Shown piece after piece: positions 3,001 to 9,000 of a DNA stretch of 40,023 nucleotides. The position numbers are program-made. Position 1 is the first letter of the stretch, and every line of letters starts with the position of its first letter. This DNA is from a virus (Duplodnaviria > Heunggongvirae > Uroviricota > Caudoviricetes): positions 1 to 40,023 of IMG/VR virus record IMGVR_UViG_2874945390_000002; one strand, written 5' to 3'.

Positions 3001-6000
3001 CAACAACGCGGTTATGCTTTTGCAATGTCAGGCGGGAACTGGTGATCACGATGTTCGCTACGGCGCCATAGTCCTGGTATTGGATTTTCATTTACATGTT
3101 CCCCATAACGGTATCGCTCATGTCGTTAACCATGCTCTGCCAGATTTCTTTGCCGCTTTGCGTCAGCTCGTTTCCACGAACGCATTTGCTTAACAGCTGA
3201 ATACCAACGGCTTCCCATTGGGGGTAATTTTCTTTGATAGCCTTCAGAGCATAACCATCGATTAAGTCCCTGATGCCTTTAACCCCACCGATGATGTTTG
3301 GATGGATCAACTTTGTAGGCCACACCGATGTGATAGCCGATGGTTGAGGTAGCCTGAGTTTAACGGACACTCCTTCCTGAAATAGAATGGCATCAGAAGG
3401 AGCTAATAATGAGCAGAAAAACCCAACGTTACTCTAAAGAGTTCAAAGCCGAAGCTGTCAGAACGGTTCTTGAAAATCAACTTTCGATCAGTGAAGGCGC
3501 TTCCCGATTATCCCTTCCTGAAGGCACTTTAGGACAATGGGTTACCGCCGCCAGAAAAGGGCTCGGTACTCCTGGTTCCCGCACGGTGGCTGAACTGGAA
3601 TCTGAAATTCTGCAACTGCGTAAGGCGTTAAATGAAGCTCGCCTTGAGCGAGATATATTAAAAAAAGCAACAGCGTATTTTGCACAGGAGTCGCTGAAAA
3701 ATACGCGTTAATCGAACAATGGCGACAACAATTTCCCATTGAAGCGATGTGTCAGGTATTTGGTGTATCCAGGAGCGGTTATTACAACTGGGTACAGCAT
3801 GAACCCTCAGACAGAAAACAAAGTGATGAGCGGCTAAAACTGGAGATTAAGGTGGCACATATCCGCACTCGCGAAACATATGGAACCCGGCGGCTCCAGA
3901 CGGAGCTGGCAGAGAATGGCATCATCGTTGGTCGTGACCGACTGGCACGTCTTCGTAAGGAGCTAAGGCTACGCTGTAAGCAGAAACGCAAGTTCAGAGC
4001 GACTACGAACCCGAACCACAATCTGCCAGTTGCGCCAAATCTGCTGAACCAGACGTTCGCTCCTACAGCACCAAATCAGGTCTGGGTGGCGGACCTGACG
4101 TATGTTGCCACACAGGAGGGATGGTTGTACCTCGCTGGCATCAAAGATGTTTATACGTGCGAAATTGTCGGCTACGCCATGGGAGAGCGCATGACAAAAG
4201 AGCTGACAGGTAAAGCCCTGTTTATGGCGCTCAGGAGCCAGCGCCCACCTGCCGGGCTAATCCACCACTCTGATCGAGGTTCACAGTACTGCGCATACGA
4301 TTACCGGGTCATACAGGAGCAGTTTGGTCTGAAAACATCAATGTCGCGTAAAGGTAACAGTTACGACAACGCTCCGATGGAAAGCTTCTGGGGAACGCTG
4401 AAAAATGAGAGCCTGAGCCACTATCGTTTTAATAACCGGGATGAAGCCATCTCAGTAATACGGGAATACATTGAGATTTTCTACAATCGTCAGCGTCGTC
4501 ACTCTCGTCTGGGGAATATCTCCCCGGCAGCCTTCAGGGAAAAATATCATCAGATGGCTGCTTAAAAAAAGAACAAATGGTAGTGTCCGCTATTGCCAGT
4601 ACACCTCAGGTTGTACCGTCACTCATCTGGAAACTGAACGGTTCATCGTAGGTCTTCATTTGTTTGAAGGTGGGGAAGATATAAACTTCAGTATTCCAGC
4701 CAGTCCAGTAGCGACCAACACCGACCACCTCACCGACGCCTTTGTCGTCGCCCAGTTTATTTACCTTGATGCCAACATTACCTGGTTCAACGCGATCGCA
4801 ACCGACAAGGCCAATGGTCGGCAGAACAATGGCTAAAGCAAAAATAATTTTTTTCATCTTTTATCCTTAGTGAAAGAAAGCCCCTTGTAAATGGCATAAA
4901 TGCAGGGCGGGGTCAGAAACGCCAGTGCAAAGCCAGAAATAACTGCTATCGTATCCTTCATGGATATAAGGAACGGAACAAGTAATCTGTAAATGCATGC
5001 GATAATTGCCAGTAAAATTACTATTCTGAAATACAGTCTCATTGGTTTGTTGCATCCCGATATTTTTAACCGACTGACAGCGCAATAAAGAGAATAATGA
5101 TTTCTGTTAGTGTCAGTACTGTAGCAAGGATTAAAAACAGTTTTACTCTGTTTAATTCACGGTTGCTTTTCATATAAACGGTTAGTAAAAAACGAAAGAA
5201 TTATATTCTTCTTAATGTTTAATGTGTCACTGGTGCTTCTGGTATACCATGAGTATTCAGATCGTGAATCATTTCATCCAGAAGGAGTTCAAGCCCTTCG
5301 CGCCCCATAGCAGAGACAATGAAGCCATTATCAGGATCTGCGATGAGCATTTTTTGATAGAGAAACAGAACTCGCCCCATGCCTTCATCTTCGCCATATT
5401 TTTCAATAAATCCCCATTCGACATGGTTTTGCAGGGCAATGCGAAGTGGCCCCGGGTATATACTTATACAACCATGCTTTCCCTTATAAATAACTGCGTG
5501 ATCTGTGGTTCCGTTATCGTTAGGGATATCAATGGTACCGTTCTTGTTTTCCTCTTCACTGATAAACGTCGCCACATACAGCCAGCGCCATTGAGCAACC
5601 TTCATATCGACTGAAAATCTTCCCAGGAATCCGGCATCATCGGCTTCTGCAATATGAGGTAGCCTGAGTTTAACGGACACTCCTTCCTGAAATAGAATGG
5701 CATCAGAAGGAGCTAATAATGAGCAGAAAAACCCAACGTTACTCTAAAGAGTTCAAAGCCGAAGCTGTCAGAACGGTTCTTGAAAATCAACTTTCGATCA
5801 GTGAAGGCGCTTCCCGATTATCCCTTCCTGAAGGCACTTTAGGACAATGGGTTACCGCCGCCAGAAAAGGGCTCGGTACTCCTGGTTCCCGCACGGTGGC
5901 TGAACTGGAATCTGAAATTCTGCAACTGCGTAAGGCGTTAAATGAAGCTCGCCTTGAGCGAGATATATTAAAAAAAGCAACAGCGTATTTTGCACAGGAG

Positions 6001-9000
6001 TCGCTGAAAAATACGCGTTAGTCGAACAATGGCGACAACAATTCCCTGTTGAAGCGATGTGTCAGGTATTTGGTGTATCCAGGAGCGGTTATTACAACTG
6101 GGTACAGCATGAACCCTCAGACAGAAAACAAAGTGATGAGCGGCTAAAACTGGAGATTAAGGTGGCACATATCCGCACTCGCGAAACATATGGAACCCGG
6201 CGGCTCCAGACGGAGCTGGCAGAGAATGGCATCATCGTTGGTCGTGACCGACTGGCACGTCTTCGTAAGGAGCTAAGGCTACGCTGTAAGCAGAAACGCA
6301 AGTTCAGAGCGACTACGAACCCGAACCACAATCTGCCAGTTGCGCCAAATCTGCTGAACCAGACGTTCGCTCCTACAGCACCAAATCAGGTCTGGGTGGC
6401 GGACCTGACGTATGTTGCCACACAGGAGGGATGGTTGTACCTCGCTGGCATCAAAGATGTTTATACGTGCGAAATTGTCGGCTACGCCATGGGAGAGCGC
6501 ATGACAAAAGAGCTGACAGGTAAAGCCCTGTTTATGGCGCTCAGGAGCCAGCGCCCACCTGCCGGGCTAATCCACCACTCTGATCGAGGTTCACAGTACT
6601 GCGCATACGATTACCGGGTCATACAGGAGCAGTTTGGTCTGAAAACATCAATGTCGCGTAAAGGTAACTGTTACGACAACGCTCCGATGGAAAGCTTCTG
6701 GGGAACGCTGAAAAATGAGAGCCTGAGCCACTATCGTTTTAATAACCGGGATGAAGCCATCTCAGTAATACGGGAATACATTGAGATTTTCTACAATCGT
6801 CAGCGTCGTCACTCTCGTCTGGGGAATATCTCCCCGGCAGCCTTCAGGGAAAAATATCATCAGATGGCTGCTTAAAAAAAGAACAAATGGTAGTGTCCGC
6901 TATTGCCAGTACACCTCAATACATCGCATGATTCTTAAACCGTGCCAGCATGGATTGTCGTACTCACCATCATTAAGACGCTGTACGGCCTCAACATAAT
7001 CAATGGTTGTATTGTCAATTTTTATGCCATGAGCTGTTGCTTCTGGTTTGAATTCAAAATTGTTCATAATGTTTGTTCCTTTGCTGGTGGAATAATCGTG
7101 TAACCCGCTCTTTTTGCCATCCACAGAAATGTATCCATGCAACCAACGAATTCATTATCCAACAGATGTTTTGAGTAAATTACTTTCCCATTTTCAATGG
7201 TTAGCAACACTCTTACTTTTTCGTGTATTACCCCCCCTGCTCAGGCTCATTCTGCATTTTATTTCGTGCTGATGTCTCCATTATTTTATCTCCCATAAGC
7301 CTTGCGCAAATACAGGTTGGCTATATGAAGATAAGAATCTCCATGTTGTGCAATGAGGCAGGCAGTTTTATACGATGCCTTATGTTTCAGGAAGGTCATA
7401 ACATAATCTCCTGCGAATAAAGGTTGCAACAATCCCCGGCGATAAAACCGTAATAAACATTCAGGGAATATTTATTGTGATTGCGCTAATTCTTTTTCGG
7501 CAGCAGCTTTTGCATATTCACATGCAAAATTTAGAATTTCGCTGCCAAGTACTTTTGTTTCGTGATTACTGGACATATGTAATACCTGTGTTGCATGCAA
7601 TAAATGATAAACATTTACCGCAAATGAATCAGGCTCCAGACAAATGCCTTCGTAATTATCTTGCTGTGAGGTTGTTTCTGTCATTGCTCCTGAAGTGCAT
7701 GCGAGCCTGTTTTTGACAATTCTCTTTCCTCTAATCACTATATCGGCAACATCTATTGCCTTTACAACCTCCGGGAGAAGTTCCTGGTTTGTATAATCAA
7801 AGTTATCAACATGGAGAACAGTTATGTTTTCGAACTTTTTCATGGCTTCCTCAGCTGACTTATATGTTCTGCTATATAGCGAGTCTCAGAAGTGTTTTCA
7901 TATTGAGACTGTTTCCGCAATGATTGATAAAAATGTTCGCATGTACCTTGAGGGGCGAAGCGGCGATTATGTCACCATTGGTATTGGTTCTTCTGTAGAA
8001 GAGCTTCGCGAGATAAGGGGCAAACTTATTGAGATGCGTCATGGTGTTGCTGCTCCTCACTTTTTGGTTGCTCCGGAGGAGTAACCTCACCAGTTAATAG
8101 CCACATCGGATCGCAGCCAAGAATATTTGCCAGTGGGATAAGCATACTGATAGTTGGTTCATACTCTCCGCTCTCCCACTGGATGATAATTTCTTCATCG
8201 AGATCGAGCAGCCTGGCGAGTTCGGCGGTTGTTAAGCCGCAGGCTTCGCGTTGGGTGCGAATCCGATTCTGTGAGTTAATAGCTAAATTTTGTTTGCGCG
8301 AACGCGCTGATTTGGCAAATAAATCAACATTAGCGCCGGGAGCACTACTACCTGCAAGGGAATTCATAGTTGATGAGATGATGTCTTGTGCAACATCTAA
8401 GAGATTGATGACGTCATGGTTTGAAGCGGTACCACCTAATAGTGCCGCTTGAGCACAAATCAACAGAGAGTTTACGGAATAAGAGCCATGTTTATCATTT
8501 AACATTACATTCACCTCACTTGTTTTTACTCGGTGAGGTGAATGTAGCGTTATGCGTTATTTTTGACAATAGCAAAATGCTAATATTTGCTATTTTTTTT
8601 ATAGTGCGTTGTATTTATTATTCATTTTCGTTTTTGTCGATCGGCATTCTTGATGCTTTAACAGCCATTAGCTCATCAAGTAGTTTGTCAAAATTACGCT
8701 TCTTTTCAGATAACTCACTAATTATCCTGTCTTTTTCACTTTCAGGCATTTGTCTGAATAACTCAATAAGTCGAGTCTCTCTTTTAGTTAGTTGCTGTTC
8801 ATCAATAGTTGTCTCACCAGTCTTTTCCCTCATTTTAGCCAGATGCCATGGGGAATCCAGCAATGAGTGGGGGATGTCAAACCATCCTTCCGATAGGCTC
8901 AGTCGCCCCTCGAGTTTTCTAGCGAGAGCAGTTCCCATATTCCTGCGCTTAGTCATTATTTGGCTTATAAGTGATGGTGATATCTCACATTTTAACGCCA

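Follow-up and report, generated by a model that had tools for sequence, protein, structure and literature searches.

The left end of a 40,023-nucleotide stretch of tailed-phage DNA (Caudoviricetes; IMG/VR record IMGVR_UViG_2874945390_000002, positions 1 to 40,023; the whole stretch is here called the window) is the leftward early operon of a lambdoid prophage of the phiP27-/yecE-type, carried in an IS600-rich chromosome (CP026836.1 of assembly GCA_002950135.1, by exact sequence match). The load of IS600, together with Shigella boydii accessions nearby, hints at Shigella as the host. Two genes of this operon, L06 and L08 in the nomenclature of phage phiP27, had been singled out in an earlier note made from the sequence alone, where they appeared as a 123-residue open reading frame (ORF) and a second ORF of about 193 residues split by the insertion sequence IS600. 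Both are conserved protein genes that are held by purifying selection and belong to phage families that are catalogued but uncharacterised. The finding is real but ordinary: what the region holds is uncharacterised phage gene content in a decaying prophage, and no new system. Three points are worth keeping – an L06 protein without a fold relative, a putative domain paralogy between L08 and its neighbour L10, and a constrained, largely unannotated gene of 37 codons.

The identity of the region is evident from gene order. On the minus strand the genes run from L10 (an XRE regulator) through L08 (123 residues), a 37-residue gene, L07 and L06 (193 residues) to a membrane protein gene and the remnant of an SPFH lipoprotein gene and, beyond these, to xis and then int. 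With the layout L01–L11 of the Shiga toxin (Stx) 2e phage phiP27 as reference, the left end of the window is collinear across int, xis, L03–L05, L06, L07, L08, L09, L10 and the repressor L11; the collinearity is shared with intact E. coli prophages integrated at yecE and with Stx1 and Stx2 phages. The order L10, L08, 37-residue gene, L07, L06 was found again in 82–87 of 95 related loci, with xis and int further along, and both ORFs of the earlier note are thus kept among related prophages. The features of this arm, in window positions, are:

75–1649: xis and int; L06 and L08 lie upstream of them
5219–5654, minus strand: 3′ part of L06, codons 50–193 plus stop (PHROG 1515), ending at the left end of an IS600 copy
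6919–7067, minus strand: 5′ part of L06, with ATG at 7067–7065 and an AAGGAA Shine-Dalgarno sequence upstream
7064–7281, minus strand: L07 homologue (PHROG 340; 72 residues in relatives), whose TGA overlaps the L06 ATG (ATGA)
7286–7399, minus strand: 37-codon gene (MTFLKHKASYKTACLIAQHGDSYLHIANLYLRKAYGR, isoelectric point (pI) 9.8), with an AGGAG Shine-Dalgarno sequence 8 nt upstream of the ATG
7472–7843, minus strand: L08 (PHROG 5451), 123 residues, intact, downstream of L10
7842–8084, plus strand: antisense 80-residue gene, phiP27 L09-like (PHROG 6104)
8026–8514, minus strand: L10-type XRE/helix-turn-helix (HTH) regulator, 162 residues; L06 and L08 lie downstream
8618–9160: 180-residue repressor-like HTH gene; L06 and L08 lie downstream

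Since L06 and L08 lie downstream of two HTH genes and upstream of xis and int, they belong to the leftward early arm; their earlier placement between the immunity region and the early-left arm was imprecise. Nor are they an isolated pair of accessory cargo genes, as had been supposed: they are members of a dense co-directional string that begins with L10 and ends with L06. That both are AT-rich is correct (G+C content 0.435 in L06 and 0.376 in L08; whole window, 0.51). The 330-bp AT-rich 'leader' that was said to separate them, however, is an interval of 404 bp (7068–7471; G+C content 0.40) that is nearly all coding: it holds the 37-codon gene and the L07 homologue, which leave only 72 nt non-coding, at 7400–7471 between L08 and the 37-codon gene. 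The L07 start lies 4 nt beyond the stop of the 37-codon gene, and the four genes L08, 37-codon gene, L07 and L06 are a tightly coupled string. An Rfam scan of 4600–10500 returned one weak match to ALIL (IS3 frameshift) inside IS600 and nothing in the 'leader', which is therefore not a known RNA. A promoter and terminator consensus scan gave counts equal to the shuffled expectation, with no prominent moron-like signal. Overlapping the L10 start codon is an inverted repeat of 20 nt (8500–8552; arms 90% complementary, 13-nt spacer), a candidate operator or attenuator heading the leftward operon.

The 37-codon gene is under strong constraint, with a ratio of nonsynonymous to synonymous substitution rates (dN/dS) of 0.06 at saturated synonymous sites. 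It is present in 87 of the 95 related loci, its product retains 61–73% protein identity in Citrobacter and Phytobacter prophages, and an independent gene caller also calls it. The gene is carried by 316 genomes; of 30 RefSeq E. coli records sampled from these, 29 leave it unannotated. In position and size it resembles lambda Kil and CIII, but no similarity was found.

Removal of the IS600 copy at 5655–6918, together with one copy of its 3-bp ATA duplication, joins 5219–5654 to 6922–7067 in an uninterrupted ORF of 582 nt (193 residues plus stop). The split reading frame recognised in the earlier note is thereby confirmed, as is its claim that the gene was intact before IS600 entered: the frame is preserved and intact relatives are 95% identical. 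That level of identity holds for intact E. coli proteins (P0001), and falls to 89% for phiP27 L06 (NP_543058). The reconstructed protein matches PHROG 1515 over its whole length (E 2.2e-91, residues 1–193 on profile positions 12–203 of 203), and a dN/dS of 0.19 indicates purifying selection. Like its phiP27 counterpart, the gene sits between L07 and the membrane and SPFH genes, upstream of xis–int; it differs in being split by IS600, and in that phiP27 annotates a longer, 212-residue start. The 193-residue start overlaps the L07 stop, has a Shine-Dalgarno sequence and is the one used by the Prokaryotic Genome Annotation Pipeline (PGAP).

L06 is widespread. It occurs in 36 phage records (19 of them Stx-converting), in 321 IMG/VR contigs and in 23 plasmid records, all non-mobilizable and mostly phage-sized at ~20–40 kb. 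In these plasmid records nothing linked L06 to plasmid leading regions, although the surrounding genes were not inspected. Of 5426 complete E. coli genomes, 330 (~6%) matched a 1046-bp probe comprising the L06 3′ part and the downstream membrane and SPFH genes. An exhaustive profile search of 1.84 billion representatives recovered 128 clusters at 50% identity, nearly all single-domain proteins of ~190–215 residues. The phages concerned are temperate, and their hosts belong to the Enterobacterales (Escherichia, Citrobacter, Klebsiella, Yersinia, Rahnella, Providencia, Raoultella and Phytobacter); L06 was also found in a phage of Aeromonas and in a single phage record assigned to Elizabethkingia. 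Every locus examined has L06 downstream of a repressor gene, and most have it upstream of xis/int. Its immediate neighbours vary: in E. coli it is preceded by L07, in other genera by a ParE-like 72-residue protein (PF24732) and phrog_1886, and in some loci an ORF6N anti-repressor-like gene stands before or after it. The gene is also absent from some otherwise similar arms, one of which carries L08, the 37-residue gene, L07 and phrog_1886. With interchangeable neighbours and arms that lack it, L06 therefore behaves as an independent accessory module.

Two further arrangements of L06 deserve mention. In non-E. coli relatives the ParE-like gene (phrog_1525), phrog_1886 (~140 residues) and L06 form a trio with overlaps of 1–4 nt, placed before xis/int (related loci L009, 5346–6558; L007, 5770–6567; L096, 3346–4564; L098, 3370–4579); this trio is possibly a functional unit. 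One metagenomic protein (P0096, 336 residues) joins an L06-like domain to a C-terminal phrog_37628-like segment, of the same family as a gene fragment at 3092–3355 in the window. This fusion, considered as Rosetta-stone evidence, we set aside, for it is a single sequence and perhaps a deletion artefact, though it may hint at a functional link. Two labels attached to homologues were likewise given no weight: the name '2-polyprenylphenol hydrolase related flavodoxin oxidoreductase' used in Klebsiella phages, which corresponds to no domain match, and precomputed PF17345 flags on two homologues, which hmmscan did not reproduce.

Searches of Pfam-A, NCBIfam, PADLOC and PDB sequences, with single sequences and with profiles, gave no match for L06; among the characterised families of Pfam-A and NCBIfam nothing rose above noise, at 16 bits where the curated cut-off is 25.9. 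An AlphaFold2 model built from a 27-sequence alignment is a well-folded alpha/beta structure (predicted local distance difference test score (pLDDT) 90.2, predicted template modelling score (pTM) 0.85) with a disordered C-terminal tail, for which Foldseek returned nothing below E 0.1 in the PDB and nothing significant in BFVD; comparison of the profile with itself detected no internal repeat. The family is acidic (pI 4.6–5.5, net charge −5 to −16). Near-invariance among distant members is limited to G34, D37, R72, W73, R120, E128, Y148 and G166, invariant polar residues being few, and a conserved G-(M/L)-P-x-x-P-x-x-H-COOH motif closes the tail.

The second gene, L08, is an intact minus-strand ORF exactly where the earlier note had placed it, and is 95% identical to phiP27 L08 (NP_543060). 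Its profile matches are to PHROG 5451 (E 2e-82, residues 1–121) and to PHROG 4587 (E 1.5e-28, residues 57–121), and the protein falls into two parts. Residues 54–121 form a two-helix hairpin domain (PHROG 4587; pLDDT 76–89, dN/dS 0.21); residues 1–53 are a poorly modelled and weakly constrained N-terminal extension (dN/dS 0.56), the value for the full gene being 0.32. The C-terminal domain occurs in 82 of the 95 loci and the extension in 49, and in relatives stand-alone versions of the domain, 66–68 residues long, lie directly downstream of the regulator. The full-length family is narrow: 28 clusters from E. coli and E. albertii and only 4 phage records, whereas the C-terminal domain is far wider. 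In the window the L08 stop has changed from TAA to TCA (7472–7477), which adds two residues (SQ) before the next TAA; the exact 123-residue sequence was found in two contigs only of a 15-billion-protein collection. Since Met1 is preceded by GAGGAA and the internal Met54 (7684–7682) by AGGAG, each a Shine-Dalgarno sequence, both a 123-residue and a roughly 70-residue product are possible.

The L09-like gene is antisense to this arm. Its ATG shares two bases with that of L08, which lies on the other strand; at its 3′ end the gene has 59 nt in common with the end of L10. Its dN/dS is 0.17. Among the architectures of the 95 loci, L09 is listed only where the N-terminal extension of L08 is present, which suggests that the two were acquired together.

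The earlier description of these genes as unrecognised needs to be divided. In so far as it concerned function it stands: L08, like L06, has no match in Pfam, NCBIfam, PADLOC or PDB sequences, by single sequence or by profile, fold searches were equally negative, and neither ORF has a strong match to any characterised protein. A comparison with the defence-system database PADLOC-DB 2.0, a kind of check that the note had proposed, returned no family at E≤0.1 for L06, L07, L08 or L09, and generic HTH matches only for L10. As genes, however, both were already catalogued, as phiP27 L06 and L08 and as PHROG 1515 and 5451. No publication on these genes emerged from literature searches by PHROG identifier, protein accession and phiP27 ORF.

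A clue to the role of L08 comes from its neighbour. Aligned by hhalign, the L08 family and the L10-type XRE regulators are related at a probability of 95.6% (E 1.2e-8), with L08 residues 58–117 on regulator residues 7–66; BLAST clustering joins the L08 group and the L10-type regulators in one family (family 26), and inspection of relatives agrees. The L10 of the window is more diverged, and BLASTP of L08 against it was not significant, the homology being seen only through profiles and relatives. SinI and SinR of Bacillus subtilis are an antagonist–regulator pair, and the parallel lies in the arrangement: a small protein, encoded beside an HTH regulator, is homologous to the non-DNA-binding helical domain of that regulator. 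Because L08 copies the non-DNA-binding domain of the adjacent regulator, as in SinI/SinR, we infer that it may pair with L10. The two-helix domain of L08 would then be a paralogue of the L10 N-terminal domain, would pair with it, and would modulate L10 as SinI does SinR; this analogy we consider possible, though somewhat short of probable. The putative pair differs from the Bacillus system in that the shared domain is N-terminal in the L10-type regulator, not C-terminal, and in that neither protein belongs by sequence to SinI or SinR (Pfam negative).

For L06 our proposal is more tentative, and we put it forward with low confidence: a soluble, acidic, single-domain early lytic protein that binds a host factor and is dispensable for lysogeny. 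Its expression would begin early in the lytic cycle, at a leftward promoter under repressor control. The protein would attach to a host protein – in host takeover or counter-defence, for example by inhibiting a nuclease – instead of acting as a catalyst, and the lysogen would do without it. The features that point this way are the acidic charge, the novel compact fold, the terminal motif, the position in the operon, and the modular distribution of a dispensable gene. Lambda carries Gam, Kil, CIII and Ral as accessory proteins of its early-left operon, and Ocr and T7 gp5.9 are other acidic phage inhibitors. L06 resembles the lambda proteins in its place in the leftward operon, between the immunity region and xis/int, and all of these in being small and dispensable, L06 itself being strongly acidic; but it has no sequence or structural similarity to any of them. 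A more ambitious version, in which L06 founds a structurally new family that neutralises host nucleases or immunity by docking through its C-terminal tail, L08 and L10 form a SinI/SinR-like switch, and the 37-residue protein is a Kil/CIII-like modulator, seems to us unlikely.

Taken as a whole – the identity of the operon together with the roles suggested for L06 and L08 – this is the best explanation we can offer, and we hold it at roughly even odds. Several observations weigh against it. Neither a homologue of known function nor a structural analogue backs any specific activity of L06; the idea of binding rests on charge, position and the absence of catalytic signatures, and D37, R72, W73, R120, E128 and Y148 could constitute an active site. 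The leftward promoter and its dependence on the repressor are presumed, the counts of the consensus scan being those of shuffled sequence. As for L08, it lacks a SinI match (no Pfam hit at E≤0.1), its structure model is poor overall (pLDDT 64) with a weakly constrained N-terminal half, and PGAP often annotates the protein only in a 68-residue form.

Other explanations of L06 must be set against the proposal of an early host-factor-binding protein. The gene sits where the established map of lambda has exo-bet-gam-kil-cIII, no recognisable recombination genes are present in the left arms examined, and some relatives have a clamp-like or 'RusA-like' phrog_3007 gene just downstream of L06; nuclease inhibitors, moreover, are common among acidic proteins of this position. 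All of this would suit an accessory of DNA metabolism – recombination, replication or end-protection – that replaces functions of the Red/Gam type. What tells against such a role, which we think unlikely, is that L06 resembles, in sequence or in fold, neither Gam or Abc2 nor any single-strand annealing protein, exonuclease or DNA mimic of the PDB. A moron that protects the lysogen by defence or superinfection exclusion, consisting of L06 alone or with the small upstream genes, appears quite improbable. L06 does adjoin the genes of membrane protein phrog_1130 and of the SPFH lipoprotein, a cassette classed in PHROGs as 'moron/host takeover', the AT content of the region is above that of the phage, and L06 is patchily distributed among otherwise similar prophages; yet it runs in the direction of the early operon, to which the ATGA overlap couples it in translation, its promoter and terminator signals do not rise above shuffles, PADLOC models find no match, and the protein is soluble and acidic with neither membrane nor nuclease-like features. 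That same ATGA overlap, by which L07 meets L06 in E. coli, could be taken as the signature of a toxin–antitoxin or abortive module shared with upstream partners (L07 in E. coli, elsewhere the ParE-like protein and phrog_1886), the more so as L06 follows the ParE-like gene (PF24732, E 8e-19) and phrog_1886 with overlaps of 1–4 nt in Citrobacter, Yersinia, the Aeromonas phage AsXd-1 and phage CharmingMan. But the partners are interchangeable: in some loci L06 has L07 alone beside it, in others phrog_1886 alone, and elsewhere it comes straight after an ORF6N anti-repressor-like gene; phrog_1886 and L07 also occur without L06. Neither L06 nor L07 contains a domain of type II toxin–antitoxin systems, a length of 193 residues combined with acidity is atypical of toxin and antitoxin alike, and the ParE-like neighbour is confined to non-E. 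coli relatives and absent from the window; we regard a module of this kind as highly improbable.

For L08 the competing explanation concerns the gene model itself. The real product may be a protein of 68–70 residues begun at Met54 (7684), the 53 codons upstream being a recent extension, little used or untranslated, that came with the L09 cassette. Stand-alone homologues of 66–68 residues exist in many phages, and PGAP picks this form even where the long ORF is available; Met54 has its own AGGAG; the N-terminal half is less constrained than the C-terminal half (dN/dS 0.56 vs 0.21) and has low pLDDT; and the extension, with which alone L09 is listed, is found in fewer loci than the domain (49 vs 82 of 95). 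Conversely, the long ORF stays open without frameshift in homologues down to 45–60% identity, Met1 is served by a good Shine-Dalgarno sequence (GAGGAA), PHROG 5451 covers the full 121 residues, and dN/dS in more diverged pairs, at 0.4–0.5, is below neutral. We consider the short form possible, though somewhat short of probable.

The copy of the prophage in the window is in decay, and it carries two copies of IS600. The features concerned are:

2867–3370 and 4609–4857, minus strand: SPFH lipoprotein gene region, interrupted by IS600 copy A
3345–4608, plus strand: IS600 copy A, 1264 bp, within what is left of the SPFH lipoprotein gene that follows L06
5655–6918, plus strand: IS600 copy B, 1264 bp, with orfA at 5719–6021 and orfB at 6057–6875, in opposite orientation to L06

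Their assignment to IS600 follows from the length of 1264 bp, ORFs of 100 and 272 residues, 3-bp target duplications, and 99.7% identity to elements annotated 'IS3-like element IS600 family transposase'. The duplication is ATA for copy B (5652–5654 and 6919–6921) and GGT for copy A, and the copies differ at 5 nt; given the differing target duplications, the two copies were therefore inserted independently. They stand in direct orientation, 2310 bp apart from start to start, and bracket 1046 bp (the L06 3′ part, a 62-residue membrane gene and the 5′ end of the SPFH gene), which would be lost if the two copies recombined.

In the window L06 is inactivated by IS600 and L07 by a homopolymer frameshift. 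The L07 frame is broken by a G7 run at 7231–7237 (C7 on the plus strand), which leaves a 48-residue ORF starting from GTG. In five of the six closest E. coli genomes the homologous run is G8 and a 72-residue L07 is annotated; in one other, strain 95_0274, it is G7 and L07 is not annotated. The shorter run may be a genuine mutation, an error of sequencing or a tract subject to phase variation. Further along the arm, the SPFH lipoprotein gene after removal of the insertion sequence amounts to only ~103 residues and runs into the phrog_37628-like fragment, beyond which lie phrog_1001 and phrog_492 genes typical of Citrobacter-type arms; a short remnant fused to a fragment, with Citrobacter-type genes behind it, therefore points to an earlier deletion or recombination that made the arm a mosaic. 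On the other side of the immunity region, matches to lambda/mEp460-like tail genes begin at ~18.6 kb, so that ~9 kb (~9500–18600) separate cro from the tail genes. Only this ~9 kb remains to accommodate the genes of replication, lysis and the head; the prophage has probably undergone truncation or rearrangement, in keeping with its decay.

With IS600 in L06 and a frameshift in L07, the genes can have no functional consequence in this particular copy. The type of prophage to which they belong, however, includes many Shiga-toxin-converting phages, and the region is under-annotated, its strongly constrained 37-codon gene being missing from nearly all of the RefSeq annotation sampled. Lambdoid early-left operons have been a repeated source of host-takeover and counter-defence proteins. 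L06 – well folded, widespread and without structural relatives – is a reasonable candidate for screens directed at such activities, and the domain relationship between L08 and L10 offers a concrete, testable hypothesis of regulation.

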